Shown: positions 6,784-55,128, counted from the first letter of the stretch. The stretch: DNA of 64,000 nt from Nitrosopumilus sp. (GCA_965218785.1 OZ244650.1:768001-832000); one strand, 5' to 3'. Translations and numbers: made by a program. Notes: a model not told the origin generated them from the letters alone.

Positions 6784-6879
6784 AATACCATAATTATCCC
6801 GTATATTTTAAAGGCTTTTTCTATTTCTTGGTTTTGCCTTTGGAAAATCTACTTAAGGCGTCTTTGATGTGCCTATAAC

Positions 6880-21032: not shown

Positions 21033-21189
21033 TTTTACGATTAACCAATCCAAGAAAGGGGGTATTAAACCATTGACTTTAATTATGATTGTCAGTTATA
21101 CTGATACTTTTTTCATGGGTTCTCCAATATCAAATCCTTTCCAGTATTCTGGAAACCTGCTAACATCATATGCCGGATCAGACTGATTT

Positions 21190-21850
21190 TGCCATGTGTT
21201 TTATCTTATACTTTTGTTCTGTGAGATCCCTATTCTGTGTACGATACACCACGCCGTTAGTCCGTATGTACCATATTATCTCCAGTATGTGTCTTGCAAC
21301 TGCAATCTTTGCCTTCTGCCATCTGCGTCTCTTGGTTATCCCCTGATGATGGATTTCATCCTCTCGTCATATCGTATGGCGGTGCTTACAGCATCCACCA
21401 TGGCATTGCGTATCCATACTGTATCCCGTTTGGCTATGCCGCCACTCTTATGCGTGTCGGCACTCCTTGTGGGATGGAACTAGGCTTGCATATGATATAG
21501 TTTTTCAGCCGTTGCAAACCTCTTGATGTCTACAATTTCAGATATTATCGTCAGTGCCGTGATGTGGCTGATTCCAGGTATCGTTAATAGTAGTCTTGTT
21601 CTTTCATCATTTTCGAATATTGATGCAATATTGCATTCCAATTTATGAATCTGCTCTTGTATCCTGAATACGTTCTCAAGGTTCATGTCTACTGCAATCC
21701 TGTCTATTTCTGAGAGTTTTATCTCCTGTAATGATGCCACAGTTGATTTTAAAAATACACTGTGTGTGGATATACCATAATCGTATTTTACAAGTATCGA
21801 GTGAATCTGATTCTTGTATTTTGTCACATCATGTACCAGATTTAGTTTCT
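21190..21850 (-). mobile_element. IS110-family transposase pseudogene (C-terminal part, several frameshifts)
   Basis: YKNQIHSIL, LLTIPGISHITALTIISEI-DIKRF, then in shifted frames LVPS...GGIAK...WIRNAMVDA...KAKIAVARHILEIIW. Confidence 0.8.
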
Positions 21851-21909
21851 GCTATGAATTGCCGACATAACTGCATTGATTAGTTGACAGATGTTTTTAG
21901 GTTGAAAAT

Positions 21910-22296
21910 CTAAAATGGTGTACTATCAAATATTTTTGATCCGGATAATTGTTTAAGAACCTGAAATATGTTGTTACTTATAACACCTCCAACCAGTACC
22001 ACTAGAACCCAAGGATCTATATGAAAATAACTTGGAAGAAAACCAGACATCACTATTGCAAATGTCATCAATGCGTAACCCCAATACGTTGTTCTTTTAA
22101 AAAGCTCCACCGTTTTTCTGATTTCCAATTTATTGGATTTACGATCATCAGGATCACCTGCACTAACCATGCCTCGTTCTAGAATCTTTTTCTCTTTTTT
22201 TGCATTATCGCCAATTCGTGTGGGTTTGACAGGAGGCGCTATTACTGGTTGTTGATTATCCTCAGTATGACTAATATCCCTGCTTGCCATCGTCAT
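21910..22296 (-). CDS. Two-TM membrane protein, candidate toxin partner of Panacea
   Basis: Overlaps the Panacea gene; charged N-terminus then two hydrophobic helices. Confidence 0.6.
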   Translation of the reverse strand: MTMASRDISHTEDNQQPVIAPPVKPTRIGDNAKKEKKILERGMVSAGDPDDRKSNKLEIRKTVELFKRTTYWGYALMTFAIVMSGFLPSYFHIDPWVLVVLVGGVISNNIFQVLKQLSGSKIFDSTPF

Positions 22297-22777
22297 TCAT
22301 TTTTTGTTCATAAAATTCTTGTATGATATCATTGGGAATCAATGTAAATAATTTGCCACGTTGATAACATTGATGCCAAGGCGTACCTTTCTCATGTGTG
22401 AGTGATGATAATTCAAGTGCAGATAAGCAACCAAAACGTTCACCCATCTGATCAAGTATGTTGCGAGTTTCAGGATCAATTAAAGATTCGATGAATTCTT
22501 TTCTTTCCTGAAATTCTTCATTATCTGCAGACAATGTGCCACAGTAATTGAGTTTATCGATGATGTCTCCCCCGTATCCCTTGTATGTTTGATATAGTAA
22601 CGGAATTACAGGACCCAATTTCCATGCCTCAATTCTTGATGCTATAAGAGGGTTTTTTGTAATGGCGAGTGTAAAGCCATGTGCAATATACGTCATTTTG
22701 ATCATGTGCATTGCGGTAAGGGAATTATTTGTATGAGTAAGAAAATAATCAGCTATCAGTTGTGCAGAATATGTCAT
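22271..22777 (-). CDS. Panacea/SocA (DUF4065, GepA-like) antitoxin
   Basis: IADYFL...M-x-x-IKMTYIAHG...IEAWKLGPVIPLLY...LSSLTHEKGTPW. Confidence 0.88.
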   Translation of the reverse strand: MTYSAQLIADYFLTHTNNSLTAMHMIKMTYIAHGFTLAITKNPLIASRIEAWKLGPVIPLLYQTYKGYGGDIIDKLNYCGTLSADNEEFQERKEFIESLIDPETRNILDQMGERFGCLSALELSSLTHEKGTPWHQCYQRGKLFTLIPNDIIQEFYEQKMNDDGKQGY

Positions 22778-22879
22778 AGTATCCTATAAAATAAAATAAG
22801 ATATTTTAAATGTTTAGTGTGAGTAAAAAGACAGTTCGATCAATGTTTGATCTACAAATTGAAAAATTTGTGCCTGTTT

Positions 22880-23330
22880 GGAATTTATATGATGCTAAAA
22901 TCAACCATTTGTCCGAATATCTCTGGAGATATTTATGTTTCATCAAATTGATGGCAGTGACAAAGGTACGGAGGATGTAAAACCAATGTTTGTAAATGCA
23001 ATGATGACTGCAGATAAAAAACCTGCAACATTGATTTCAGATGGAGCAGCCAACTTTCACGATGCGTGAAAGTCAGAATACCGACAGAAAAACTCTCTAC
23101 ACAAGAAGACCAAACACATCCACATGAAGATGACATAAACAACAATCAAATGGAGAGGTTAAATGATACCATCAGACCGAGAAACCCCATACCGGAAAAT
23201 AAGATGATAAACAGCTCACGTTTGATGGATTTCAAACATTCTATAATTTTACCAAAAAACATGGATCTTTGAACGGTAGGACACCTGCTGAAATGGTGAG
23301 AATTATGGAACTGGCAGGCCTGATCTCCAA
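22880..23330 (+). mobile_element. Degraded DDE transposase (IS6/integrase-core type)
   Basis: Fragments across frames: ISDGAANFHDA*, NNNQMERLNDTIR, YN-F, HGSLNGRTPAE. Confidence 0.7.
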
Positions 23331-26510: not shown

Positions 26511-26792
26511 TGTGTGCTGGGAGTAACCCTCCTTCTGTTTTCACGATATTTCGCTTTGCAGCCTACCTGAACTTGGTACAGGAACCTCTAGTTCTGTTTG
26601 GCCTTGCTCCATGCGGGTCGGCTTTTTTCATTCCTTTTATGGAAATCTCAGGTTTTGCCATCATTGTGCGCCATATTGGATTTTTTTCTGCTCCGTTGCC
26701 AACCATCTCTGGTTATCCATCTCCGGATCGCATTTCCTGTATGGAGGGAGGAGTTTCCTCTGCCGTAGCAGCGTGTCGTGCTCCAGCTCACA
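26511..26792 (-). ncRNA. rnpB: Archaeal RNase P RNA
   Basis: Minus strand starts TGTGAGCTGGAG, contains GAGGAAACTCCTCCC (CR-I) and ends AACAGAAGGAGGGTTACTCCCAGCACACA (CR-V); the ends pair as P1. Confidence 0.92.
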
Positions 26793-39707: not shown

Positions 39708-40288
39708 TATTTTCTGGATTTTTTTTGATTATTACAATATTTGGATCGTAAAATATGGTCTTAACGCGTGGATATCTGATCTGATTTCCAGCCGGTTTTC
39801 TGCCTGCCTACAGACACGTCTTTTGTGTATCACATTTTATTTTATCAAAAATGACTAGCCACGCGTATTATGGCTTTGAGTCGGTTTTATCTGGTGATGC
39901 CTGTGCATGTTTGTATCATTTACCCTTGTTTTTTCTGTCTTGTCGGAATCTGGTTCTGGCAGTGATATGTGTGTGGTTTATAGATATCTGTGACTTGCAT
40001 CTTCTTGCCTGCAAGATGTATTCCAGGTTGCAAGTTTTTATTCATTGATTGATTGCAATGTCTACCAATATGACATTTTTTCTCCTTGCACCAAGTTTGG
40101 CAACACCATCGTAAAACCTTGATTCGCAAATCCGGCAATTCCCAGAATTTATGTCGAATTATATTAGATCTGTTTACTCCAAAATATTTGATCCTGTGAC
40201 TGGAATACCCTTTTACTGAATCGTAAGTAATTTTTGAACTATGCATAAATAACAATTATGATGTGATATTGTTCATAGTTGGGATTAA

Positions 40289-41446
40289 ATGAAATATGAA
40301 AAAATTACTTTAAAAAATATTGGTCCTATAGAAAAAGGTCAAATTCAGCGTCATAAAATCAATGTATTTTTTGGACCTAATAATTCTGGTAAATCTATGA
40401 CATCTAGACTGATTCATGGTATCGGTCAGCTAAATACTGGTTCTAGAGGTCTTCAAGGAATGGTTAAAAAAGAAATGAATTCACAGAAAGAACTGCATGC
40501 GTTTTATAGATATTCTATTCTAAATAGCGCTGGTCTTGGCATGCAAGATCTCTTATCGTATAAGAAAGAATCATGTCATCTAACTGTCACATTTAGTGGA
40601 AAAACACCTGAAATGGATTTTGGCTTTAAAAAAAACACGTCAATTACTAAAAAACATTTAATGTTACAACACCATGCATCAGTGCTTTCTCAAACTTCAA
40701 GAGACAGTGTGTATATTCCAGCAGGCAGAACTGGAACCATCCAATCTTTCACGAGTATCACTAAAATGAGAAATCAACTTCTTCGAGATCTTTTGGGCTC
40801 TTTTCAAATTGACGATCCTTCTAATATTAAAAAAACATCTGCAAAAGAAATTAAAAACTTTACACGTTCATCAAGTAAGTTACCTGAACATCTGGAACAA
40901 TTCCATGATTTGATTCTTGATACACATGCTAAAGGAATGAGTAAAGACGTTCAAGATTCATTTTCAAATTTACTCCTTGGTTTAATTGAATCTACGGATA
41001 CTGGAGGACTGCCTGAAATAATTTACCGAGATCCGACTGGATTTGTGACTGAAATTGAATCTGCAGGTTCTGGAACGGTGTCATCTTTTCCGATTGTTGC
41101 AGGTGTTCATTGTGTTAACAAAAATGGTATTTTGATTATTGAGGAACCAGAGGCACACTTGGAACCGGCAAAACAGCTTAGGCTTATTGAAGAACTTGTT
41201 ATGATTGCTGAAAAGAAAAAAATAGATTTGATTTTTACAACTCATAGTGATTATGTTGTTAAAAAATTATTGGCACTGGTAAGTAGAAAAAAAATAAAAC
41301 ATAGTGATTTGGGTTTATATTATTTTAATCGAACTCCTACATCCCTAACACATATAGAAAAAATCCCTGTTGATAAAACTGGGGAAGCAGAACAGGCACT
41401 ATTTGAAAACGCACTAGATACACTGGTGGAAGAATTTTCAGAATAA
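40289..41446 (+). CDS. AAA_15/AAA_21 ABC-type ATPase (AbiEii/OLD-like)
   Basis: LKNIGPI, GPNNSGKS, YIPAGR, AGSG signature, IEEPEAHLEP, TTHSDY. Confidence 0.88.
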   Translation: MKYEKITLKNIGPIEKGQIQRHKINVFFGPNNSGKSMTSRLIHGIGQLNTGSRGLQGMVKKEMNSQKELHAFYRYSILNSAGLGMQDLLSYKKESCHLTVTFSGKTPEMDFGFKKNTSITKKHLMLQHHASVLSQTSRDSVYIPAGRTGTIQSFTSITKMRNQLLRDLLGSFQIDDPSNIKKTSAKEIKNFTRSSSKLPEHLEQFHDLILDTHAKGMSKDVQDSFSNLLLGLIESTDTGGLPEIIYRDPTGFVTEIESAGSGTVSSFPIVAGVHCVNKNGILIIEEPEAHLEPAKQLRLIEELVMIAEKKKIDLIFTTHSDYVVKKLLALVSRKKIKHSDLGLYYFNRTPTSLTHIEKIPVDKTGEAEQALFENALDTLVEEFSE

Positions 41447-41449
41447 CTT

Positions 41450-41670
41450 GATTCACAAAAATATTGCCTAGTCCTTGATACTAATGTTCTTGGAGGTATT
41501 TTTGAAATTGATAGTTTTGAGAATATTAAAATTGTTTTAAAAAATTGGATTTTGAAAATTATTACAAATATGGAAAAAAATCAAAAGTAAAAACAATTAC
41601 TGTTTTTGCATCAACAAATATCATACATGATTATAAGACAGGATTGAGTAAAAGTGGATACAAGGTCCAT
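41450..41670 (+). pseudogene. Remnant of a PIN-like partner gene
   Basis: KYCLVLDTNVLGGIFE... (PIN first-strand LDTNV) followed by a frameshift/stop near 41590. Confidence 0.45.
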
Positions 41671-41788
41671 CCCCATCCTCAATTTTGTATGTCCCACTCG
41701 TGATATTGAACCTTAAATTAATGATGAAAAAACACTTACGAATAATTGACCTTATTCATCTAAATAATTGATGATTATTGAATATTTT

Positions 41789-42037
41789 ATGGAATACCCC
41801 ATATCTGTGGATGAAAACGGTTTAAATTTAAAACCTGAAAAAATGGAGAAAGAGAAACTCTATCACTGTATGTTCAAAAACAAGGCAATCCTGATCTTCA
41901 AGGATTCCCAAGATGTCCTGAATTGCTATGAAATCGAGGAAAAGGAGTTAGTTGAGAAAATTCAAAAATGTGCCAATGATGATGATCTCGAAAGGTTGTT
42001 TGAAGACTATGTTAAAGGACAGGATCTTAAAAATTAA
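41789..42037 (+). CDS. Hypothetical protein
   Basis: Intact acidic ORF MEYPISVDENG...; backbone-like context. Confidence 0.7.
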   Translation: MEYPISVDENGLNLKPEKMEKEKLYHCMFKNKAILIFKDSQDVLNCYEIEEKELVEKIQKCANDDDLERLFEDYVKGQDLKN

Positions 42038-42080: not shown

Positions 42081-43073
42081 TTGAACGACACTAATAAATC
42101 AAAAGATGCAGAAGACATTTTATCAGAGTTTGATTCTAGAACCAAGCTTGCATCAGAGCCAGAATCCGATCCGGAACCCGAATCTGAGATAGAGCCAGAA
42201 TCCGATCCAGAGCCAGAATCCGATCCAGAACCAGAATCTGAGACAGAGCCAGAATCTCGGCCAGAAGCAACATCCGAACCAAAAGCAGTATTTCATTCAG
42301 AACCAGAAACTGCACAAGCCTCCGAATCAGAACCTGATACTGCACAAGCTTCCGAATCAGAACCAGAGACTGCACTTGCATCAGAACCAAAGGCAACATT
42401 TCAATCAGAACCAGAAACCGCACAAGCCTCCGAATCAGAACCAGAAACCGCACAAGCATCAGAACCAGAAACCGCACAAGCCTCCGAATCAGAACCAGAA
42501 ACCGCACAAGCATCAGAACCAGAAACTGCACAAGCTTCCGAATCAGAACCAGAAACCGCACAAGCTTCCGAATCAGAACCAGAAACCGCACAAGCTTCCG
42601 AATCAGGACTAGAAACTGCACTTGAATCAGAACCAAACACAACATTTCAATCAGAACCAGAAACTGCACAAGCCTCCGAATCAAAACCAGAAACCACACT
42701 TGAAACCGATTCCAAAACCGCACAAACATCCGAATCAGAACCGGAAACCACCATTGAATCTAAACCCCTTGACGAATCTGCCGACTCCACCAAACCTGTA
42801 GAAGACCGTAATGTAATCTTCATTGGTACAAAACCAATAATGGCTTACGTATCGGCAACTTTGACTCAACTCTCAACACGAAAAACTGTGACCATTCAGG
42901 CCAGGGGAAGAAAAATCACGCAGGCAGTTGATGTATCACAAATGATTGTTAAAAGAATGGATTTTGTAGGCTATGTAATCAGTGATGTAAGAATTTCATC
43001 TGCTTCCCTTACCTCTCAAGATGGAAAACAACGTAATGTATCTGTAATAAAAATTGACATTTCAAAAAATTAG
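42081..43073 (+). CDS. Alba DNA/RNA-binding protein with long acidic repeat N-terminus
   Basis: C-terminal IFIGTKPIMAYV...IQARGRKITQAVDV...RNVSVIKI (Alba domain). Confidence 0.88.
   Translation: MNDTNKSKDAEDILSEFDSRTKLASEPESDPEPESEIEPESDPEPESDPEPESETEPESRPEATSEPKAVFHSEPETAQASESEPDTAQASESEPETALASEPKATFQSEPETAQASESEPETAQASEPETAQASESEPETAQASEPETAQASESEPETAQASESEPETAQASESGLETALESEPNTTFQSEPETAQASESKPETTLETDSKTAQTSESEPETTIESKPLDESADSTKPVEDRNVIFIGTKPIMAYVSATLTQLSTRKTVTIQARGRKITQAVDVSQMIVKRMDFVGYVISDVRISSASLTSQDGKQRNVSVIKIDISKN
42150..42770 (+). repeat. Coding tandem repeats: 18-bp EPESDP units, then 30/36-bp (SE)SEPETAQA units
   Basis: Recurrent TCAGAACCAGAAAC(C/T)GCACAAGC(C/T)TCCGAA; unit lengths keep frame. 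Confidence 0.92.
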
Positions 43074-44670: not shown

Positions 44671-44851
44671 TGATTGGTTTTTACATCCATAGAATAATAG
44701 TTTTTACCTAATTTTTTTAATTTTGTAGGATCCGAAAAGTGATTTGCCCCTAGATACGCATGATATCTCTTCTCTCCTGTCCTCTTAGTTTTCCCCTCAT
44801 TTACCCACGAGGAGCAAACCACTTTTTGGACAGAATAAAATTCTTGATTCC

Positions 44852-45351
44852 GGTTCTGTCGGGTTATCGTGATATAGACATGAAATATGGATTTTCTCCA
44901 GATCAGTTATTGTAAAGTTATTGGGAGCTAGAAATGGGCTTGGTGTGTTTTGAACCCACGTAATCCTAAGATAGCTATCTGACAAACAGCCGTGTTTAAC
45001 CTAGCTTTACTACAAGCCCATTAAATGTTAAAATACTACAAGTTAGTAATAATATTATCTGACAAACAGTATCCATAGGAATATGGCGGTGGAATGATCC
45101 AAATTAATTAATTAATTTGGAACTCCACTTTTTTCTATTCTATTCAAACTAGCATTTTGGATCAAAGTAATCCATTTATTCTTACCATCAAGGAGACCAC
45201 ATCATACCTTGGCACAGGGGTGGGAGAACAATCGAAGATAACTGCCAGATAATTTGTAAGGACTGTAATAGTAAAAAAGCAGGTAAATAAGAAATTTCAA
45301 TCTGGAGAAGATCGTTATTTCATGTCTATATCACGATAACCCGACAGAACC
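44852..45351. mobile_element. 500-bp non-autonomous IS6-like element (MITE) with 51-bp TIRs and 8-bp TSD
   Basis: TIRs 44852-44902 and 45301-45351 (GGTTCTGTCGGGTTATCG...; first 36 bp identical, 3 mismatches in 51). TTGATTCC is repeated directly at 44844-44851 and 45352-45359. No transposase inside. Confidence 0.88.
44935..45019 (-). tRNA. Atypical tRNA gene: Leu-type body with long variable arm and GTC (Asp) anticodon; possibly a pseudo-tRNA
   Basis: GGGCTTG/CAAGCCC acceptor plus A73; D loop AGCTAGGTTAA; anticodon arm GCTGT-TTGTCAG-ATAGC; variable arm ATC-TTAG-GAT; T arm GTGGG-TTCAAAA-CACAC (one mismatch); 85 nt. Confidence 0.75.
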
Positions 45352-45385
45352 TTGATTCCTAACTCTTTTTTAGTGGTGCAAATAC

Positions 45386-45529
45386 ATGAGACACATATCC
45401 GATGCAAGACAGGCAGATGATCTCACTCCTGAGGAGATCAAGGATATTGATGAGTTTTATGCAGATGACAAAGGCAGGAAAACAGTGTCTTTTGATGAAT
45501 TCATGAAAGAGCTAAAAGAAGAATCTTGA
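45386..45529 (+). CDS. 47-aa acidic putative antitoxin (RelB-like)
   Basis: MRHISDARQADDLTPEEIKDIDEFYADDKGRKTVSFDEFMKELKEES; stop overlaps a RelE-like start; paralog at 53557-53688. Confidence 0.6.
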   Translation: MRHISDARQADDLTPEEIKDIDEFYADDKGRKTVSFDEFMKELKEES

Positions 45530-45685
45530 GTGACATCTGGAATGCTGCAAGAAAGACAAAATTTCTCAAGCAATACAAAAACCTTGTTCTCAAATTCAGG
45601 AAAGTAAACCATTCAATACGGGAATTACAATCTCGGAGAATCCCACACTCTGGAAAATATAAACAGGACAAACTATTTTTGGGAA
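45526..45685 (+). pseudogene. RelE/ParE-like toxin remnant
   Basis: TTG start, SDIWNAARKTKFLKQYKNL (RelE-like N-terminal F-x-K-x-Y-K-x-L); similarity is lost afterwards. Confidence 0.45.
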
Positions 45686-45689
45686 TAAG

Positions 45690-46631
45690 CTAGTCTTTTA
45701 ATTTTGAAACAAGCGCGGCATAAATGAACGGCAGGATCGTCGTTACCTCGGCATGAAGTGTTGCCTGTTTTGCTTTTCGTGTCACCTTTCCCCAAGAGAT
45801 CGCCTCCCTGACTAGCGCACCGCTAAGGCTGCCGTCAAACTCCTGTGCCGTCGTAATGTAAAACGCATAGTCCAGCCCCTCCCTATACTGGTTCCACCAC
45901 AACGTATGGTGCTTGGAAATGCCCCCTCCAATCATAAATGCTCCTGATTTTTCAGCCTTGAAGATTAATCCAGAAAGTAAGTTTGCATCCCCTGTCATGT
46001 CTAATCTGAAATCATTGTGTTTTTGTGTAAAAAGCCAAATCTGGCTTCCTACTGCGCCATCCATTATTCCTGGAACTATTACACTGACGTCATTTTTGTT
46101 TGCCCAATAAAGAAACGAGTCCGGACCCAGGTGCCTGCCGATCATCTTGCATATTTCTGCAGTAGTCATCTCCCTTTTCCCGTTTTGATACTCTTCTTCT
46201 AAAAATGCCTGCATCTTTTCTTCAATGAGCGGTCCGTAGCTATCCATGGGCACAAGTATGTTGCCCAGTCTGTGGATGTTTTGATCAGCTAGCGCCATGT
46301 CATCCATTGCAAACGAGCCTTCCTTGTAATGTGAGAAATGCCTTGCAATATCGTGATCCAGCGCGCCACAGGTTGTTATGGCAACATCAAACCAGTTGTT
46401 TTTGATCATGTTTTTGATGATTCCCCGCTGCCCTGTTGAAACAACGGCGCCCACAAATGAGACAAATCTGAGACACTGCTTATCTGAGATCATATCAGTT
46501 AGAATCTCCAATCCGTCTGAGAGATTCACAGACTCGAATCCCCCTGACTGGGATAACTCTTCAAAGATTTTCTCTATTGATGAATTTGAATCAATTTCAA
46601 TATCCTTTACAGGTCTGCCTGGGTTTATCAT
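45690..46631 (-). CDS. dys: Deoxyhypusine synthase
   Basis: GAVVSTG-x-R, HRLGNILVP, PGIMDGAVG, GGGISKHH, FDGSLSGA...EAISWGKV, AEVT. Confidence 0.95.
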   Translation of the reverse strand: MINPGRPVKDIEIDSNSSIEKIFEELSQSGGFESVNLSDGLEILTDMISDKQCLRFVSFVGAVVSTGQRGIIKNMIKNNWFDVAITTCGALDHDIARHFSHYKEGSFAMDDMALADQNIHRLGNILVPMDSYGPLIEEKMQAFLEEEYQNGKREMTTAEICKMIGRHLGPDSFLYWANKNDVSVIVPGIMDGAVGSQIWLFTQKHNDFRLDMTGDANLLSGLIFKAEKSGAFMIGGGISKHHTLWWNQYREGLDYAFYITTAQEFDGSLSGALVREAISWGKVTRKAKQATLHAEVTTILPFIYAALVSKLKD

Positions 46632-47009
46632 GATCTGATTCGATGATACTGATATAAAATCGTGCCTTACTGTATACTGACAAACTGTGATGAATTTAAT
46701 ATTTTCAGACAGATGCAATTAGGTAATGCAGATGTATGGAGATGTCCTGGAATTGGCAATCAGATCATTATTTGCATCAGGTATTGTGGGCAGAGAGGAG
46801 AAAACCAATGTATTACAAGAAGGATGTCTGTGTTGGGATCTTTCTAAGATTCCACATTACCATAATGGGGTTCTGTAAAGTTATAGAGGCCGACTAGTCA
46901 TAATGTCTGGAATTAATAAAATGTGTAACCACTTTTCAATACATGAAAAGCAGTACACAAACCTGGGCTGTCAACTATGATTTTTGAGATGTAAGTATAA
47001 TAAAAAGTT

Positions 47010-47051
47010 ATGAATGGCTGGGAGTCGAACCCAGTTCCCCTGAGTTGACAG
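47010..47051 (-). tRNA. 3' half of a tRNA-like sequence with a CTGTCAA loop; 5' half absent
   Basis: Minus strand CTGTCAA-CTCAG-GGGAA-CTGGG-TTCGACT-CCCAG-CCATTCA; perfect T arm; no D arm or acceptor partner upstream. Confidence 0.55.
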
Positions 47052-47052
47052 G

Positions 47053-47970
47053 GTGACGGATTCTAATAGGAATACGGATTCAGAAAAAACAGAGACCATT
47101 CCAATTTACATTTGGTCAAGCAGGGATTTGGATAAAAAAAAATTGATTGCAACTGAGACAGAAACAGACACTGGAATTTTTGAGGCATCTGTATCTTTTG
47201 GAATGACTGATGATATAACTAGTCAGCAAATACAGGCATTTGAGGGGGACACACTATACACTCAATATTATAATTTTGTATCACCCACGCCATTCTCAAC
47301 ATCCCGTGAGTACAACACAGACATGGATACGACAATTATGGGATGGGCACATCCGGACTCTGTGTGGGGTGATAACTGGGCAAACATCGTGGTGCAAAAC
47401 AATGTCAAATTCATTTATGATCCCTGCATGGTTGAATTCATGGACAAAATAGGTGAGAATGATCCCGGATTTGACCTGCTTGACATACAGTACCCCACAC
47501 CACTAAAACAAATGAAATCTGGATTATACCCATTTGAGATAAAATGCAAGGATCATTTATTGCTGATCTTCAGGCATTCGGATAGTTCCCCCGTATGTGC
47601 AAGTCCGGAACATGCCATAAAATTAACTTCAAAAGCAGGCTGGACGAATAATTTTAATCCGCTTGTCCATCCGATGGCTGATTCACCGACTCTTGAATAT
47701 AGAGAAAAGTTTTGCGAGTCACACAATGGAACCTGGTCTGAGCAGTTCAATAACTGTGTTGGTGGACTCTTGAATGTGCCATGCGATAACATTGATAGAT
47801 CCGAATTGAGCCCTCCGGATATTTTCATAGGGGTATATGGAGAAACAACCTGTTCATCACATGAATTATTTTGCAGGTCCATGGGCGGGCATTCTGAATG
47901 CATGTCTTATGAACAATTAGGACACGGACGTGATGTTTGTAGTTCCATCTGTGAGTTTGATGATAAATAA
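47053..47970 (+). CDS. N-terminally truncated surface-protein-like ORF
   Basis: Starts mid-domain (VTDSNRN...ETETDTGIFE), contains PLKQMKSG...C...PVC and a Cys-rich tail; no signal peptide. Confidence 0.6.
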   Translation: MTDSNRNTDSEKTETIPIYIWSSRDLDKKKLIATETETDTGIFEASVSFGMTDDITSQQIQAFEGDTLYTQYYNFVSPTPFSTSREYNTDMDTTIMGWAHPDSVWGDNWANIVVQNNVKFIYDPCMVEFMDKIGENDPGFDLLDIQYPTPLKQMKSGLYPFEIKCKDHLLLIFRHSDSSPVCASPEHAIKLTSKAGWTNNFNPLVHPMADSPTLEYREKFCESHNGTWSEQFNNCVGGLLNVPCDNIDRSELSPPDIFIGVYGETTCSSHELFCRSMGGHSECMSYEQLGHGRDVCSSICEFDDK

Positions 47971-48295
47971 CAGTTCAAATCCCAGGTGTTGAAAGATACC
48001 TGAATGGAATCTGACTGACCTCATGAATTTTTGATAATCGCCACATCTGATGAATCTAGGTTATAGTGGATTCTAGTGATCTGATCACCAAAATGCACCA
48101 GAGCCCAGCAAAGCGTGATTTCACACCAGATCCACCCAAAAATAGATCAAACTATAAAAATAATCAAATTCAGGGTAATTTCTATATACTAATTATGACT
48201 ACTTTACTCATGGATAGATTCACTTTAATTAATTATGATATGCGGTTAATTGATTTTTATACTTTGAATTTTATCAGTAGGAGTGAAGTCAAAGC

Positions 48296-48553
48296 ATGAG
48301 TAATTCAACAAGTACTGTCAAATCTAGTTTCCTTAATCCCAAAGAACGTAAAGCATTAAAAGAATACCAGGAGTATAAAGAACTCAGAATAATTGTTACA
48401 AGACCAGTTAGGGCATTTAATGATACTGAAGCAATACTGAAAGATTTACAAGGTGAGGGACTCTCATCATTACAGAAAGAAATTGAGCGATCAAAAAAAT
48501 CTCAAACAAAAACCATTACCAGACCAAAACTCAAAAGATCGCATGTTAGATGA
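48296..48553 (+). CDS. Small basic hypothetical protein
   Basis: GGAGTGA Shine-Dalgarno upstream; overlaps the protease start. Confidence 0.6.
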   Translation: MSNSTSTVKSSFLNPKERKALKEYQEYKELRIIVTRPVRAFNDTEAILKDLQGEGLSSLQKEIERSKKSQTKTITRPKLKRSHVR

Positions 48554-49355
48554 AACTGGAAAGATCATCAAACAAATAGAAGAGATACGCAAATCAAAAC
48601 TTCTAGTTGTTATATGTCATCAGTCAATCAGTTTACAAGCAAGCTTATCAATAAATAAAATCTTGCGTAAAATCGAACATTTGGATCATTTGGATATCCT
48701 TTTGGAATCTGGAGGAGGTGATATTGATGCAGCATATAAAATTCTTAACTTATTCAAAAGTTATGCAAGTAAAATATCTGTAATAGTTCCTTTTTATGCT
48801 AAAAGTGCTGCAACGTTAATTGCCCTTGGTGCTGATGAATTAATTGTTTGTAAGGCTGGGGAATTAGGTCCTCTTGATCCTCAAGTTAGAGATCCGCAAA
48901 CTAATTCATTTGTACCTGCACATTCCATTAAGGAAGCAATGAGTTTCATAGAAGAGATTCATGATCCTGTGATGAAACTAAGTCTAACTGACAAGATTCC
49001 TGCATTATTGATTGGTGCATATAGGGCATCAGGAAAATCATGCAAGCAATATCTTGATGCAATATTCACAGAAAAAAAGATAAAAGATAAAGATAAAATG
49101 ATAAAAATATTTACAGAGAAATTTTTGTCTCATGGTTATCCAATGCACAGAGACTTTTTAGCAAAATATCCCATTAATTTGATTAAACATGATGATGTAT
49201 TGGAAGATAAATTCTCTGAATTACATGAAAAATACAGTGATTATTATAAACAATTATACCGTGATAATTCAGAGTTAGCAGGAGATTTACTACTTTTACA
49301 ATCAAATGAGCATTCTCTAGTCATGTTAGATGATGAAGAAATTGATAACACATAA
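48543..49355 (+). CDS. SDH-family ClpP-fold serine protease
   Basis: LESGGGD, AKSAATLIALGADE, ELGPLDPQ, SHGYP. Confidence 0.88.
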   Translation: MLDETGKIIKQIEEIRKSKLLVVICHQSISLQASLSINKILRKIEHLDHLDILLESGGGDIDAAYKILNLFKSYASKISVIVPFYAKSAATLIALGADELIVCKAGELGPLDPQVRDPQTNSFVPAHSIKEAMSFIEEIHDPVMKLSLTDKIPALLIGAYRASGKSCKQYLDAIFTEKKIKDKDKMIKIFTEKFLSHGYPMHRDFLAKYPINLIKHDDVLEDKFSELHEKYSDYYKQLYRDNSELAGDLLLLQSNEHSLVMLDDEEIDNT

Positions 49356-49660
49356 ACCACCAATCTTTTGTCTCCACATCTTACAACAGAAAACTCAAGG
49401 TATAGGTGATTGTTGCATATATGGATTCCTACGATAGGTAAACTATCTTAATTTGTAAATTGCAAATGTCAATTCAAAAATACATACTACAGTGAAAGTC
49501 CGTGGACAGTGAGGTTCTGGTAGATTCTAGTGATCTGATCACCCAAATGCACCAGAGCCTACAACACCCATGTCTGGATCTGAGATCATCCCTCAACTTG
49601 TACCAGAATTTTGTGCATAAAATATCAAATTTTAAATATCCATTATGATAAACATGTCAT

Positions 49661-49804
49661 ATGGCAGTAAGAGAAGTTGCACCACTTAGTCAAAGACAAT
49701 GGGATAAATTACAGGAACTTATGGCAAGAGGATCTACTAAGAAACAATTGAAAACAATTGCAGACGCTAAAGAACGTATTAAAAATATCAAAGTAGAATT
49801 TTAG
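49661..49804 (+). CDS. 47-aa putative antitoxin, copy 1
   Basis: MAVREVAPLSQRQWDKLQELMARGSTKKQLKTIADAKERIKNIKVEF; TTTAAATA box upstream; directly precedes the GNAT gene. Confidence 0.7.
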   Translation: MAVREVAPLSQRQWDKLQELMARGSTKKQLKTIADAKERIKNIKVEF

Positions 49805-49815
49805 GTTTTTAAAAA

Positions 49816-50379
49816 TTGTCCGAACAAATTGATTTCAATGATCCAAACTTGATTAGATTTCAAAGAGTAAAATCACCTGCCGATTTAGATGGATTTAACT
49901 CTGATGTTGTTGAGTTTAATGAATACATTGGTCCGGAGATTGCTTTTGATCTAGAACACAGCATTACACGGGCTTACTTGATTAGAGTTGAAGAGGACGT
50001 TGTAGGATATATTGATTTATCCATGGCTCATCTTAAAAATAATGCAACTCCTGCCATAGCAGATAAACAAATTAAAAGCAATGTTCCGGCAATATTGATT
50101 AGTCATTTGGCTGTAGATGTCGTATTTCAAGGACACGGTGTTGGGAGATTCCTTTTAAAATTGATTATTGATAAATTGATTCCGAAATTAAAAAAAATGG
50201 CAGGATGCAGATATGTAATATTGAATCCAAGAGATGATCAAGGTGTCCGAGATTTTTATATAAATTGTAAATTTGAGTATGTTAAAAAACTCAAAGATGA
50301 CAGAAAACCTGATAATGAATTGGATTTTTGTTTGTTTGATTTGATAGGTATTAAAGAGGAAGATGAGGAATACACCTAG
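49816..50379 (+). CDS. GNAT acetyltransferase, TA-toxin type (TacT/AtaT-like)
   Basis: VVGYI, VPAILISHLAVD-x-x-FQGHGVGRFLL, GCRYVIL, DFY. Confidence 0.85.
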   Translation: MSEQIDFNDPNLIRFQRVKSPADLDGFNSDVVEFNEYIGPEIAFDLEHSITRAYLIRVEEDVVGYIDLSMAHLKNNATPAIADKQIKSNVPAILISHLAVDVVFQGHGVGRFLLKLIIDKLIPKLKKMAGCRYVILNPRDDQGVRDFYINCKFEYVKKLKDDRKPDNELDFCLFDLIGIKEEDEEYT

Positions 50380-50718
50380 AAAAATCCGTGAACTAAAAAC
50401 CATCAAAAAACTAGAGAGGTTAATGGCTTTACCCAAGACCCCTGAATAATAAAATCAAAATATCCTGAAAATAAATCACAAACTGTTTTGCCACACATTA
50501 CAAGAAATTTTTCACGACAACACAACGACTGATGCAAAACAGTGATCTGAGCACCAAAATGCAAAGTCCATGGTTTGGTGGATTCTAGTGATCTGATCAC
50601 CAAAATGCACCAGAGCCTACAACACCATGTCTGGATCTGAGATCATCCCTTCACTTATGCCTGATTTTTATACATAAAATGCCAAAATTTTAAATATCCA
50701 TTATGATAAACATGTCGC

Positions 50719-50862
50719 ATGGCAGTAAGAGAAGTTGCACCATTTGATGAAAAACAATGGAAACAATTACAGAAAAGTATGGCAAGAGGACCTACTAAGA
50801 AACAGTTGGAAATGATTGCAGACGCTAAAGAAAGTACCAAAAACATCAAAGTAGAATTTTAG
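50719..50862 (+). CDS. 47-aa putative antitoxin, copy 2
   Basis: MAVREVAPFDEKQWKQLQKSMARGPTKKQLEMIADAKESTKNIKVEF. Confidence 0.68.
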   Translation: MAVREVAPFDEKQWKQLQKSMARGPTKKQLEMIADAKESTKNIKVEF

Positions 50863-50873
50863 GTTTTTAAAAA

Positions 50874-50990
50874 TTGTCCGAACAAATTGATTTCAATGAT
50901 CCAAACTTGATTAGATTTCAAAGAGTAAAATCACCTGCCGATTTAGATGGATTTAACTCTGATGTTGATGAGTTTAATGAATACATTGGT
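50874..50990 (+). pseudogene. Truncated GNAT copy
   Basis: Near-identical to 49816-49932; cut at the palindrome starting at 50988. Confidence 0.85.
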
Positions 50991-51135
50991 TCTGGTGGAT
51001 TCTAGTGATCTGAGCACCAAAATGCACCAGAGCCTACAACACCATGTCTGGATCTGAGATCATCCCTCAACTTATGCCATATTTTTATACATAAAATGCC
51101 AAAATTTTAAATATTCATTATGATAAACATGTTGC

Positions 51136-51279
51136 ATGGCAGTAAGAGAAGTTGCACCATTTGATGAAAAACAATGGAAACAACTTGAGGAAATGATGTT
51201 CAGAGGATCTACTAAAAAACAATTGAAAGCAATTGCAGACGCTAAAGAACGTATTAAAAACATCAAAGTAGAATTTTAG
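51136..51279 (+). CDS. 47-aa putative antitoxin, copy 3
   Basis: MAVREVAPFDEKQWKQLEEMMFRGSTKKQLKAIADAKERIKNIKVEF. Confidence 0.68.
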   Translation: MAVREVAPFDEKQWKQLEEMMFRGSTKKQLKAIADAKERIKNIKVEF

Positions 51280-51290
51280 GTTTTTAAAAA

Positions 51291-51362
51291 TTGTCAGAAC
51301 GAATTGATTTCAATGATACAAGCTTGGTTGAATTTGAAAGGGTAAGATCACCTGCCGATTTA
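51291..51362 (+). pseudogene. Truncated, diverged GNAT copy
   Basis: SERIDFNDTSLVEFERVRSPADL, after which similarity ends. Confidence 0.75.
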
Positions 51363-51545
51363 GTTATAACATGGATCCCATTAATAAAACGCTTATTCTT
51401 TTTCTTTATTATCTACAGGAAAGAATTTCGCAATAATTGTCTCTGAATCTATCTTCATAACGTTTCCTTTTGTTGTACAAAAAGTAGATATCTAGGATTC
51501 AAAAGATCATAGTGGATTAATTTTGAATGATCTTCATTTTATTAA

Positions 51546-52238
51546 TTATTGAAATAATTCCGGCATTTTGATGTCTGATGGTATATTCTCCAGGATATCC
51601 AGTGGTTCGTTAAGCTCCATTGCACCGTACTCTATCATTTTTTCAGGCCATTTCAAGTTATTATTGTGAACTACCGACTTGCAAATAAACAGTGGTCTGC
51701 CTAGTCTGAGTGTCTCCAAGCCCTGATGTAGCGAACCGCTTGAATCACCGGCTTCCACAATTACAGTGGCATCAGAAATCAACGCCATGGTTTTGTTTCG
51801 CAACACAAAATCCTTTGGCGTAGTTGTATGACCTGTAGGATACTGGGAAATCACCAAATGATTTTTCATAATTTCTTCCTGCAATTCTGAATTTTCTTTG
51901 GGATAGACCCTGTTTAACGGAGTGCCAATAACTGCAATGGTTTTACCTTCATGTCTGATGGCAGTTTGGTGTCCTGCCGTATCAATTCCCTTTGCGAGTC
52001 CGCTTACAATGGTTACTTTGTTTTCAATCAAGCACTTTGAGATCTCTTTAGCTTCTGATAGTCCCTGTTCTGATGCTTTTCTAGAACCGATGATTGAGAC
52101 TCTTGGACAGGGTAAAGGAATCCTCATGGGACCTTTGCAGAAGATCCTCTTTGGAGCAAATTTTGATTCAACATCATTTAACAGACGACCGAGTAGTTTT
52201 TCTAATCGAATATCCTGATATCCTGCGTCTTTAACCAT
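51546..52238 (-). CDS. DprA/Smf-family protein (Rossmann domain only)
   Basis: SIIGSRKAS, IVSGLAKGID, F-x-x-RNKTMALIS, VEAGDSSGSL. Confidence 0.9.
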   Translation of the reverse strand: MVKDAGYQDIRLEKLLGRLLNDVESKFAPKRIFCKGPMRIPLPCPRVSIIGSRKASEQGLSEAKEISKCLIENKVTIVSGLAKGIDTAGHQTAIRHEGKTIAVIGTPLNRVYPKENSELQEEIMKNHLVISQYPTGHTTTPKDFVLRNKTMALISDATVIVEAGDSSGSLHQGLETLRLGRPLFICKSVVHNNNLKWPEKMIEYGAMELNEPLDILENIPSDIKMPELFQ

Positions 52239-52359
52239 CTATTAGGAAACCATCATGTTTGTATTTTAATATTAGTGACACGCAAATATTTTTGAGATCA
52301 ATTTTATCAAACCAAAAACTACAAGGATCATTCCTGTTCTAAAATAACATGAGATCAAT

Positions 52360-52645
52360 CATGCCGGAAGATTTCAGAAAAGCGTACAAAAAAGAAAAAG
52401 ATCCAAAAGTAAAGCCAAGAATGCTCAGTACACATGTTTTATGTACGTAACAAGGATGTGCAGGAAATAGCACAAGATCTACTGCAATGTCCTAACTGGG
52501 TCACCTAGTGAGTAGAACGCTTGGAAAATGAAGGTCTGGAAGGCTCCTGGATCTTCCCAAATATGAAAGACCTGTAAAAATTCCACACAAAAAAATGGAT
52601 CAGATAATGCCCAAAACATCCAGTGGACGCATTACGCCGGGATTC
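52360..52645 (+). mobile_element. IS630-family transposase N-terminal remnant
   Basis: AYKKEKDPKVKPRML...EIAQDLLQCPNWV...ERLENEGLEG-L-DLP, broken by stops and frameshifts. Confidence 0.65.
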
Positions 52646-52742
52646 CACCATTATTTGCACATCCATTTGTAATTTTGTATTATGATACAGCAACATCATG
52701 TATTGTAAAAATTTCAGAAATAGTTAATTCTCTAAATTTCAT
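52640..52742 (-). pseudogene. Doc/Fic toxin N-terminal remnant
   Basis: MKFRELTISEIFTIHDVAVS*YKITNGCANNGGI resembles the Doc N-terminus L-T-x-x-E-I-x-x-I-H-D...G; in-frame stop, abuts the IS630 relic. Confidence 0.5.
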
Positions 52743-52815
52743 CTAATGCATCAAAAATCACTCTTGACTCATTAATGCTTTTTCTAACTGCTTCTTGGAG
52801 CTCTTCTTTAGTCAT
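52732..52815 (-). CDS. 27-aa putative Phd-like antitoxin
   Basis: MTKEELQEAVRKSINESRVIFDALDEI; overlaps the Doc-like start. Confidence 0.45.
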   Translation of the reverse strand: MTKEELQEAVRKSINESRVIFDALDEI

Positions 52816-53333
52816 TTTCAATACCAATTTAACATTATAATATAATCTATTAAAGATAACGGTTGTCTGCTCTGGATAATTTGCGGGTGTTTTCACTGCA
52901 CTGTAATTGGGGTGTTTTCGAGAATTTTAGATACTTGTAGCGATCAAAAATTGCATATTAAGTCAATAATCCTGCTTTAAAAATATTCCAGCTATCTAAA
53001 AATGGAGATGTTAAACCTTGACCCACCAACCATTATTTTTTCCAGATAGGGTATTCCCAGTACCATCTGAATTTCGTTTTTTCTTCACATGTGGTTAATA
53101 GAATAAACGGTAGAATTTTTATTGAAATCTACTTTAATTTGGATGCTGATACGTAATTGGTTGCCTTGAAACACGATTCTGGTGTAAAACAGTGGTCTGA
53201 TCACCCCAATACATCAGAACCGGTGGGACTGACTCTGGAGAAGATCATATTTCATACCTCATGTCTAGCACACGATAATTTCACAGTACCGATCATACCA
53301 AAAAATTATAAAGTCATTTTGTTATAATATAAC

Positions 53334-53456
53334 ATGATACCAAAAGAAAAACTACTATGGACTGCTAAAGATAGTGAGGATGCTAAAGCATTCGTAGAAG
53401 GTGTAGATAACGGTTCAATTCAAACCGAGGATTTCTTTAATTTAAAAAGGACATAA
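53334..53456 (+). CDS. 40-aa microprotein, possible antitoxin
   Basis: MIPKEKLLWTAKDSEDAKAFVEGVDNGSIQTEDFFNLKRT; TTATAAAG box ~25 bp upstream. Confidence 0.4.
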   Translation: MIPKEKLLWTAKDSEDAKAFVEGVDNGSIQTEDFFNLKRT

Positions 53457-53556
53457 TATTCATTAGTAAATGCCTTGGATACCTTCAAGTCATTCTCCAA
53501 ATGTGGTTGATTTCAGTTTATGCATTTGGAATATGTCAGTCCAAGATAGATTACCA

Positions 53557-53688
53557 CTAAACTCTATCGAGTTCTTGCAATAGCTCCTTGAGGGTTTTTA
53601 TCTCTCCATCCTCACGGTTGCTTCTGAATTCTTTAATGTCCTTAATCTCTTCAGGTGTCAAATCATCAGACTGTTTTGTTTCAGTCAT
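53557..53688 (-). CDS. 43-aa putative antitoxin, paralog of 45386-45529
   Basis: MTETKQSDDLTPEEIKDIKEF...KTLKELLQEL; shares DDLTPEEIKDI with the 45386 ORF. Confidence 0.6.
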   Translation of the reverse strand: MTETKQSDDLTPEEIKDIKEFRSNREDGEIKTLKELLQELDRV

Positions 53689-54033: not shown

Positions 54034-55128
54034 ATGGGAGGCAGAATTAAAGTCGGTTTAATAGGCATTGGTAACTGCTTTTCAGGGCTGATTCAAGGCA
54101 TAGAATACTATCGAAAAAACCCGTCGCAGCAGGTTATTGGAATTATTCATGAACAACTAGCCGGATATGGCATCCATGATGTTGATTTTGTATGCGGCTT
54201 TGATGTTGGTAAAAACAAGGTTGGCAAGCCACTCATGGATGCAATTTATGAATCCCCCAACATCGTTGACTGGATTCCCAAAAATGAAATGCCAAAGACT
54301 GCCGCCATGGTACATGAGAGTCCCATATTAGACGGGGTCGGACTGTGGGTTGAAAACAAAATCCTGCCAATTCAAAGTAACAAAACCATCGAGCAGATCA
54401 CCAAAGATGTAAAACAGATCATCCAAGATACAGGCGTCGAAGTTCTCGTATCGTACCTGCCTGTGGGTTCTGACAAGGTAACTGCATTCTGGGCTCAAAT
54501 CTGTCTTGATACCAAAACCGCATTTGTAAACTGTATTCCGTCATTTATCGCATCAGATGAGAAATGGGCTAAAAAATTCCAAGATGCAAACATTCCGTGT
54601 ATTGGCGATGACATAAAGGGCCAGGTTGGTGCCACCATAGTTCATAGGACTCTGGCAAAGTTATGTAACGACCGGGGGACCAAAATTGAAAAAACATACC
54701 AGATCAACGTTGGAGGCAACACTGATTTTCTAAACATGAAGGAGCAGGAACGGCTTGTTTCTAAAAGAATCTCCAAGACCGAAAGCGTTCAAAGCCAGCT
54801 TGATACCAGGCTAGATGATGATCAAATCTATGTCGGTCCGTCTGATTTCATCCCGTTTTTGGGCAATACCAAACTCATGTTTATGAGAATTGAAGGGCGT
54901 CAATGGGCAAACATCCCATACAACATGGAGGTTCGTCTGGACGTTGATGACAAGGCAAACTCTGCTGGTATCGTAATTGATGCAGTCAGGCTTGCAAAAA
55001 TCGCCCTTGATAGGGGGATTGGGGGGCCGATCAAGGCTGCCAGTGCATACCTGATGAAACACCCCATAGAACAAACCTCCGATGTTGCAGCAAAAATTGC
55101 ATGTGAAGAGTTTGTCGCAGACAAGTAA
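54034..55128 (+). CDS. ino1: Myo-inositol-1-phosphate synthase
   Basis: GIGNCFS, SYLPVGS, GDDIKGQVGAT, NVGGNTDFLNM, SKTESV, DKANSAG. Confidence 0.95.
   Translation: MGGRIKVGLIGIGNCFSGLIQGIEYYRKNPSQQVIGIIHEQLAGYGIHDVDFVCGFDVGKNKVGKPLMDAIYESPNIVDWIPKNEMPKTAAMVHESPILDGVGLWVENKILPIQSNKTIEQITKDVKQIIQDTGVEVLVSYLPVGSDKVTAFWAQICLDTKTAFVNCIPSFIASDEKWAKKFQDANIPCIGDDIKGQVGATIVHRTLAKLCNDRGTKIEKTYQINVGGNTDFLNMKEQERLVSKRISKTESVQSQLDTRLDDDQIYVGPSDFIPFLGNTKLMFMRIEGRQWANIPYNMEVRLDVDDKANSAGIVIDAVRLAKIALDRGIGGPIKAASAYLMKHPIEQTSDVAAKIACEEFVADK

Follow-up and report, generated by a model that had tools for sequence, protein, structure and literature searches.

Here we describe a 47-nt imperfect palindrome that is present in six + strand copies between positions 48059 and 53221 of a 64,000-nt stretch of Nitrosopumilus sp. 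DNA (GCA_965218785.1, OZ244650.1:768001-832000; hereafter the window, by which we mean this whole stretch). The copies lie in an island of low guanine-plus-cytosine (GC) content together with short accessory modules, among them three units (A to C) that combine a 47-aa open reading frame (ORF) with a GNAT gene. The palindrome, or hairpin, belongs to a multi-copy family that is dispersed outside the window in Nitrosopumilus-type archaea, and homology blocks break at its tips far more often than by chance. We propose, with a probability of roughly one half, that it is a miniature stub of IS6-family insertion sequence (IS) ends that acts like IS26 in resistance-gene arrays; we infer the transposase step in this proposal from the joints and the ends themselves.

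A dispersed family of 47-nt palindromes

Repeat finding, a pattern search and a profile search agreed on the same six sites in the window:

48059..48105, + strand, hairpin 1: nhmmer E 1.9e-15; left tip mutated (GGTTATAG); left edge of the low-GC island
49513..49559, + strand, hairpin 2: homology with cassette copies of another genome begins at the next base, 49560
50525..50571, + strand, hairpin 3: nhmmer E 1.6e-9; degenerate fossil at the 3' end of unit A
50571..50617, + strand, hairpin 4: abuts hairpin 3; 1-nt deletion in the left tip
50988..51034, + strand, hairpin 5: truncates the unit B GNAT gene
53175..53221, + strand, hairpin 6: diverged, 67% to the reference copy

The first-pass annotation of this DNA had counted six copies. 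All six sites were confirmed, but only four hold good copies: those starting at 48059, 49513, 50571 and 50988 are near-complete, the one at 53175 is diverged, and the one at 50525 is a fossil that has lost both outer tips. At the place equivalent to this fossil (hairpin 3), an intact hairpin was found in L012 and the same fossil in L014, two of the loci (L numbers) fetched from other genomes as described below. When up to 3 mismatches were allowed, a 30-nt core pattern matched the window four times, compared with 0 matches in each of 100 dinucleotide shuffles. Similarly, a hidden Markov model built from 27 copies gave six matches, all within 48059-53221, and the remaining 58.8 kb yielded no hit with E below 1.

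The consensus of the 27 aligned copies reads GGTTCTGGTG-GATTCnA-GTGATC-T-GATCAC-CAAAATG-CACCAGAACC, the tips being GGTTCTG/CAGAACC, and the left inner 7-mer occurs in two main forms, GATTCYA and CAAAAYA. Structural covariation is absent, the observed score being reached by 75 of 500 shuffles, and the window copies fold weakly (z-scores -0.2 to -2.9, e.g. -1.2, -2.9 and -1.3); both results indicate a double-stranded rather than a folded site and count in favour of our proposal. Similar to the abutting copies at 50525 and 50571, L008 (11140-11230, - strand) carries a full hairpin followed by a half hairpin, tip to tip (...CACCAGAACC|GGTTCTGTTTGATTCTACGG).

We scanned 185,579 species genomes with a degenerate 22-nt core of the palindrome. 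The scan returned 21 loci, the window itself not being among them, of which 18 came from three Nitrosopumilus metagenome-assembled genomes (MAGs); the three bacterial loci matched in the core only, had no outer arms and were treated as chance. Fifteen of the 18 Nitrosopumilus loci lie on a single 2.36-Mb chromosome, OZ244579.1, where they extend from 28 kb to 2.27 Mb and occupy both strands. At nhmmer E ≤ 1e-6, 35 copies were detected: the six of the window, 26 on OZ244579.1 and three in two other MAGs. The 26 copies come from 13 non-overlapping fetched loci (15 loci, with L009-L011 overlapping), which make up only ~13% of OZ244579.1, so that this chromosome holds at least 26 copies. Copies occur in every position relative to genes, and solitary ones lie among housekeeping genes, close to PurK in L007 and to argininosuccinate lyase in L018. 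The first-pass annotation would have given up its reading if copies arose only by local tandem duplication; the copies are instead dispersed in three Nitrosopumilus MAGs.

Homology blocks break at hairpin tips

As the first-pass annotation had stated, copies of the hairpin precede modules in the window: one stands before the pair formed by an 85-aa ORF and a protease ORF, one before each of the three 47-aa ORF and GNAT units, and one (hairpin 6) before a 40-aa ORF at 53334-53456. The segments concerned are as follows:

48296..49355, + strand, module 1: 85-aa ORF (48296-48553) overlapping an ORF for a ClpP-like SDH-family serine protease (48453-49355)
49560..50524, + strand, module 2 (unit A): TATA-like promoter region, 47-aa ORF (49661-49804) and full-length 187-aa GNAT (49816-50379)
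50618..50987, + strand, module 3 (unit B): 47-aa ORF (50719-50862) and the first ~38 GNAT codons, cut by hairpin 5
51035..51363, + strand, module 4 (unit C): 47-aa ORF (51136-51279) and a GNAT stub
51546..52238, - strand: DprA-fold gene like ShosA (PF02481, E 2.9e-52; PADLOC ShosA, E 2.5e-72, profile positions 96-294 of 303)
53099-53497 (~400 nt), no strand assigned, hairpin 6 module: 92% identical to L001 9908-10311, which has a different chromosomal context and different neighbours

The 47-aa ORF and the GNAT gene (PF00583, 23.8 bits against a cut-off of 20.7 in unit A) form a putative toxin-antitoxin pair.

Comparison of these loci revealed that 27 of 689 homology-block endpoints fall within 5 nt of a hairpin edge and touch 14 of the 35 hairpins. 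A block that contains a hairpin must, from the way it is built, end at the far edge, and even there homology stops at the tip. In 500 random placements, the corresponding values were 1.5 endpoints (maximum 8) and 1.0 hairpins (maximum 4) on average. Homology of the window with the copies of its relative starts at the first base past a hairpin, at 49560, 50618 and 51035, and the equivalent point in the relative's copies is preceded by a reversed, degenerate hairpin and 31-33 nt. At L003 10030 and 10382, L013 9992 and L018 10030, homology stops at the outermost bases of the hairpin, with unrelated DNA beyond. Further, a 2.1-kb repeat of L012 and L014 is shortened in L013 exactly at a hairpin edge, and L003 has, between two direct hairpins, a GNAT-module fragment that is inverted and truncated on either side.

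Genes are cut at the same tips. After ...GAATACATT, the unit B GNAT gene is replaced by the hairpin at 50988, and alignment places GGT in both partners, consistent with the first-pass annotation, which had described a cut at a GGT microhomology. The GNAT gene is cut a second time in L003, 18 nt further along, and because only 1-2 nt are shared at that junction, the GGT microhomology is weak evidence. A 58-aa M1-peptidase fragment abuts the hairpin of L016. We considered L016 as an empty site for window 6358-9372 and rejected it, because the two are not syntenic and have only the 58-aa peptidase fragment in common.

The relationships among the modules are not those of a recent local amplification. 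The antitoxin-GNAT module recurs in OZ244579.1, in L003 (twice), L012, L013 and L014, at 77-97% identity, and for each of the three window units, some copy in a different genome is nearer than either neighbour. Over a 5' segment of ~345 nt, unit A shares 94% identity with L014 and 90% with L012, and identity over ~1 kb is 88-92%; unit B shares 97% identity with L012 compared with 91% with unit A and 89% with unit C. In the tree, L012 falls with unit B (support 89/87), and unit A clusters with L014 and L013 (97/96). Thus, the three units are not recent tandem copies, and the 9-14% by which they differ from one another argues against a simple repeat-collapse or expansion error of assembly. The types of junction seen in the window and in the relative cut across this phylogeny, which indicates either that the same joint formed repeatedly or that copies were exchanged.

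Not every boundary coincides with a hairpin: homology of unit C to the other units stops at ~51363, and there is no hairpin at that point. Between unit C and hairpin 6 lie ~1.8 kb without hairpins, which contain the ShosA-like gene on the opposite strand and decayed mobile DNA. In the ShosTA pair of defence genes, ShosA is the DprA-like partner; next to 51546-52238, however, a gene for the partner toxin is not evident, and the ShosA-like gene may be an orphan or belong to a truncated ShosTA-type pair. The module 1 protease ORF matches PF01972 (E 6e-17) and NF047768 (E 1e-20, under the curated cut-off), and PADLOC gave no match for module 1. Among weak Pfam matches, nothing credible emerged for the small ORFs in the island or in related arrays.

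Other repeats also accompany the modules. A dispersed ~100-135-nt repeat directly follows the GNAT stop codon (window 50381-50484) and recurs at 75-91% identity in the relative (L001 8267-8403, four copies in L013, L015 4664-4789, L017 4530-4636 and L012 10352-10445). Window 52253-52640 is 83% identical to L017 15573-15946 and 73% to L018 19424-19746; its frame is broken by stops, and by eye it resembles a decayed transposase N-terminus, for which it is a candidate. An IS630-type DDE_3 fragment is present in L015.

IS6-type ends and a proposed origin of the joints

The first-pass annotation had likened the hairpin to two IS6-type ends placed back to back, and comparison of the tips bears this out. 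Over 23 ungapped nt, the two hairpin arms match the terminal repeat of a 500-bp IS6-derived element in the window at 17 and 16 positions and the end of an IS6-type element in L018 at 14 and 14. Among 127,954 window 23-mers, only the hairpin copies and both ends of the 500-bp element reach at least 17 matches. The IS6-derived features of the window that bear on this comparison are listed below, P0001 denoting the full 289-aa L018 transposase:

44852..45351, no strand assigned: IS6-derived non-autonomous element of 500 bp with 52-nt inverted repeats, 94% complementary
45139-45192, - strand: transposase C-terminal remnant within the 500-bp element; 13/17 aa to P0001, E 0.014
53234..53290, + strand: solo right-end copy of the 52-nt inverted repeat of 44852-45351, inner part through tip

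The 500-bp element is flanked by a perfect 8-bp target duplication (TTGATTCC) at 44844-44851 and 45352-45359. ARAGORN places an 87-nt tRNA-Asp inside it (44934-45020, - strand), a doubtful call given that the Rfam tRNA model stays below its gathering score. The first-pass annotation had compared 53234-53255 with the inner terminal repeat of this tRNA-carrying element, and the two agree at 21 of 23 positions; the similarity continues to a tip at ~53290, in an alignment with a 1-nt offset, and this solo repeat begins thirteen bases after hairpin 6. Just outside each of the two repeat tips (45351 and ~53290) lies one of two small paralogous ORFs, 45386-45529 (+) and 53557-53688 (-), which are identical at 17 of 40 positions (E 2e-11), have the motif DDLTPEEIKDI in common and match no family.

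L018, which lies in the hairpin-rich relative OZ244579.1, encodes an IS6-family transposase at 30-662 (PF13610 DDE_Tnp_IS240, E 2.5e-13; NF033587, E 2.4e-26, under the curated cut-off). P0001 has 858 homologues at E ≤ 1e-10, one of them named by its source as a Thaumarchaeota DDE transposase. The L018 element ends 22 nt past the transposase stop codon (...CACAGAACC) and has the same GGTTCTG tip as the hairpins, whose arms read GGTTCTGGTG..., with one arm variant GGTTCTGGTGCAAAAC and a CAAAAYA form GGTTCTGGTGCAAAA.... According to the family review, IS6 repeats are 15-20 bp long, have GG at the tip and contain the motifs cTGTt and caaa, and target repeats are 8 bp (PMC7986276). The hairpin arms have the GG tip followed by CTGGT in the register of the family, with one cTGTt position differing (G for T); the CAAA motif is present only in the second arm variant, and the CAAAAYA form fits the IS6 register. 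From this in-register match to IS6-type ends we conclude that the palindrome probably consists of two IS6-type tips fused head to head. The possibility that a hairpin is simply the terminal repeat of a decayed IS6 was rejected, as the L020 hairpin lies ~300 nt beyond the expected end of the nearby decayed copy.

Building on this comparison, we propose that the 47-mer would be a miniature non-coding IS6-family derivative, in which two ~23-nt terminal-repeat tips stand head to head around a single base, and that the joining of DNA to unrelated sequence would have taken place at the tips. Accessory modules, namely the GNAT toxin-antitoxin units, the ClpP-like protease pair and the ShosA-like gene, would thereby end up bracketed, truncated, reversed and stacked between copies, and the window array would be a mosaic of such modules in a low-GC variable island. 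The joints may be made by an IS6-family DDE transposase that is supplied in trans and uses single tips. The model is IS26, which generates adjacent deletions and attaches translocatable units beside an existing copy without target duplication; homologous recombination between copies would add duplications and losses.

Joints at the outermost bases with unrelated DNA beyond resemble the products of a DDE transposase, which joins the 3' ends of the element to new DNA, and the mostly direct orientation of neighbouring hairpins (13 of 17 pairs within ~5 kb) fits an IS26-like process. IS26, the most thoroughly studied member of IS6, truncates neighbouring genes and stacks translocatable units without target duplication (PMC7986276, PMC4196232, PMC7885326). 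The first-pass annotation had suggested IS26-like behaviour of an ultra-short miniature inverted-repeat transposable element (MITE), and the truncations at tips and the direct arrays agree with that suggestion, but the target duplication of a MITE is lacking. A more specific version of our proposal, in which the 47-bp stub would be a portable joining site, with a trans-acting IS6 transposase exchanging single tips in a conservative, IS26-like mode, moving circular hairpin-plus-module units into existing copies and trimming the neighbours, is put forward tentatively and is less likely than not.

Several results weigh against the IS6-end proposal. The first-pass annotation had proposed to look for 8-bp target duplications around solo copies, and none was found: 0 of the 27 hairpins with both tips has one (eight degenerate or tip-damaged copies of the 35 were left out), the best reaching 6/8, and the mean best flank match is 3.74 compared with 3.72 for shuffled flanks. 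Nor was a split duplication found between the left flank of one copy and the right flank of another: 0 of 650 ordered OZ244579.1 pairs reach 7/8, compared with 4 in a control with flanks displaced by 30 nt; copy-in transposition has therefore left no trace. No target-site consensus is visible in the flanks of the 27 copies. As to whether any IS shares the ends, on which the first-pass annotation had also made its reading depend, an IS6-type element does share the tip, but no intact IS with exactly these ends, or with ends closely matching the arms, was found in the window or the fetched loci. The L018 element matches the arms at only 14 of 23 positions and its left end lies beyond the fetched DNA, and the IS6 content of the window consists of decayed remnants only. 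Further, two tips 47 bp apart would be hard to pair by one transposase complex, and the use of single tips is an assumption drawn from the analogy of IS26. Outside the window, 8 of 12 pairs are direct, which is no significant bias in orientation. Finally, 17 of the 47 columns are invariant among the aligned copies, including the centre GTGATCTGATCAC, but the apparent conservation of the centre and the right inner arm is partly an effect of selecting copies with a genome-scan pattern that spanned them.

The lack of target duplication of any kind would also be expected if the hairpins were palindromes like the repetitive extragenic palindromic (REP) sequences, serving the host or neutral, for example as cruciforms, as elements that end or stabilise transcripts or as sites bound by a dimeric protein, and spread with their modules. 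Homologous recombination, or breaks induced by the palindrome and their repair, would then account for the breakpoints at the edges, and the likeness to IS6 would be ancestral or coincidental, with no use by a transposase today. Consistent with this explanation, solitary copies are found among housekeeping genes, the invariant centre looks like a predicted dimer-binding site, GGT is common to both sides of the GNAT junction, and the consensus copy forms a strong DNA fold (-14.7 kcal/mol, z -6.6), while that of L016 is a perfect palindrome (-26.9 kcal/mol). However, homology ends exactly at the outermost bases of the 47-mer, whereas flanks should stay collinear after crossovers within the repeat, and a palindrome usually loses some of its sequence on breakage. 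In addition, agreement with two IS6-type ends, counted in register from the tip, greatly exceeds the background of the window, and no single regulatory role fits copies in every position relative to genes. We consider this explanation unlikely.

A second alternative is that the hairpins are integron-like or Xer/pdif-like sites, within which a tyrosine recombinase encoded elsewhere swaps modules. The alternation of same-strand sites with short toxin-antitoxin and acetyltransferase modules agrees with it, integrase-less cassette arrays are common, archaea included (PMC9668308), and the centre can be divided into two 11-nt arms with a 7-nt spacer between them. Against this, no RYYYAAC...GTTRRRY attC box pair at 44-145 nt spacing was found on either strand of the window (single boxes number 37 and 30 on the + strand and 30 and 37 on the - strand), and the tips GGTTCTG/CAGAACC have the reverse layout. 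Likewise, no tyrosine recombinase or integron integrase was detected in 59 window ORFs or in 254 ORFs within 10 kb of the hairpins of relatives (one 3,188-aa ORF was omitted, and outside these near zones only ORFs of 130-700 aa were scanned). The first-pass annotation was therefore right to note that the attC layout and an integrase are lacking in the window; its term 'integron-like array' describes the appearance well but does not fit the arbitrary module ends and orientation. The ends vary, as shown by the L003 fragment, reversed and cut at both ends, and by the two points at which the GNAT gene is cut; sequence rather than structure is conserved; and exchange within the core would not give breakpoints at the outermost bases. 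The 47-nt element is also shorter than typical attC sites, and pdif modules are flanked by alternating sites, whereas here flanking sites are mostly direct (13 of 17). Overall, we regard site-specific recombination as very unlikely.

Less probable still is handling of folded single strands by an HUH enzyme (an IS200/IS605-type, REP-associated tyrosine transposase (RAYT) or IS91-like rolling-circle transposase, none of which leaves a target duplication), a view that accords with the missing duplications, with the conserved internal mismatch of the imperfect palindromes (GATTCTA opposite CAAAATG) and with the GTTC in the tips, an IS91 target, but under which cleavage by IS200/IS605 would fall outside the hairpin foot at a fixed offset and not at the tips, where the breakpoints are. 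IS200/IS605 elements are known in Thaumarchaeota (PMC6563490), but no Y1/Y2 HUH transposase (PF01797-type) was found in the scanned ORFs (~13% of OZ244579.1 sampled), there is no strand bias along OZ244579.1, the window copies fold weakly, and the in-register match to IS6-type repeats is left unexplained. The single close inverted pair, whose copies are 435 bp apart in L004, encloses no ORF of at least 70 aa.

Genomic setting and comparison with known systems

The window is a piece of archaeal chromosome whose only DNA relatives in the genome scan were the Nitrosopumilus MAGs, and its source is probably a Nitrosopumilus-like thaumarchaeon. It contains an archaeal RNase P RNA at 26512-26791, the sole Rfam match at gathering thresholds across its whole length, and its ORFs include Alba, deoxyhypusine synthase, PAC2, SMC, methylmalonyl-CoA mutase with MeaB, pyruvate phosphate dikinase and EgtB/EgtD-type genes. 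GC content is 41% overall, drops from 0.41 to 0.33 at ~48000 and stays at 0.32-0.36 throughout an interval that is bounded by an unknown ORF (47053-47970) and by the gene for inositol-1-phosphate synthase (54034-55128), with flanks of 0.39-0.48; all six hairpins lie within this low-GC island. The whole island, or 44852-53290, was ruled out as one composite element, because the 8-bp flanks differ. A query with 48059-53290 against a phage collection in distant mode gave no match.

A second low-GC patch (0.32-0.33) at 40001-42000 contains an AAA_15/AAA_21 ATPase (40289-41446) with matches to defence ATPase profiles (NsnB, E 2e-30, and the AriA and GajA types). Decayed mobile DNA is also clustered at 21116-23319, with an IS110-family transposase fragment (21480-21827, -), a SocA/Panacea antitoxin-domain ORF (22271-22777, -) and IS6-transposase remnants (23129-23319, +); window 21116-21201 is 86% identical to L009 12132-12218, DNA that directly abuts a hairpin. 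An Alba-domain protein (42081-43073, +) has a long acidic N-terminal region coded by 24-30-nt tandem repeats with CAGAACC, which are unrelated to the hairpins despite the common 7-mer.

Nitrosopumilus-type archaea are major nitrifiers. If the 47-mers are active joining sites, they would explain interspecies shuffling of small defence and toxin-antitoxin modules, which are 90-97% identical between genomes and occupy different chromosomal places. Should the more specific version hold, these ammonia-oxidising archaea would possess a cassette platform that is driven by a transposase, uses DDE chemistry and serves defence and toxin-antitoxin genes, its outcome being convergent with that of integrons. 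Even on a more modest reading, the family offers a convenient means of marking variable islands and the points at which these genomes have been rearranged. The mobile DNA catalogued for such archaea comprises proviruses, casposons, IS elements and integrated elements (PMC6563490), and a term search of this thaumarchaeal survey gave no passage on miniature or hairpin repeats. A search of open-access papers and preprints found nothing on such repeats in these archaea.

Among known systems, REP sequences and bacterial interspersed mosaic elements (BIMEs) are short imperfect palindromes at many sites, and pdif sites enclose small modules that include toxin-antitoxin pairs. The hairpins resemble both in these respects. 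They differ from REP and BIME sequences in that no RAYT gene was seen in the sampled DNA and the arms match the end of a DDE transposon, and from pdif sites in that flanking sites are mostly direct and not alternating. Clusters of attC sites lacking integron-integrases (CALINs), archaeal ones included, likewise consist of a row of imperfect palindromes between small accessory genes, with similar sites in each genome and toxin-antitoxin and acetyltransferase cargo. Unlike CALINs, the window array has no attC boxes and no integrase was found, the sequence and not the fold is conserved, and module ends and orientation are arbitrary; the known archaeal integrons were identified by standard attC criteria (PMC9668308).

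Like IS6-family MITEs, the hairpin has both IS ends and no ORF between them, and the element at 44852-45351, with its 8-bp duplication, is a good example of that class. Two IS6 MITEs, of 227 and 336 bp, are known from the family review, which lists none as short as 47 bp (PMC7986276). The hairpin departs from this class in its length of 47 bp, in ends that overlap at a single central base and in its 0 of 27 target duplications, by which it fails the IS6 insertion signature, a result that speaks against a classical MITE.

The closest likeness is to IS26/IS6 arrays, the pseudo-compound transposons and translocatable units of bacterial resistance regions, in which direct copies alternate with unrelated gene segments, neighbouring genes are cut exactly at the tip, many copies lack target duplications and the ends start GG...CTG (PMC7986276, PMC4196232, PMC7885326). 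The differences are that the hairpin is 47 bp long without a transposase gene, so that the enzyme must act in trans, that the host is an archaeon, that the cargo consists of toxin-antitoxin and defence-like modules rather than resistance genes, and that the array is known here from sequence alone. If our proposal is correct, array building in the style of IS26 would need just a pair of tips and would not be confined to bacterial resistance plasmids.

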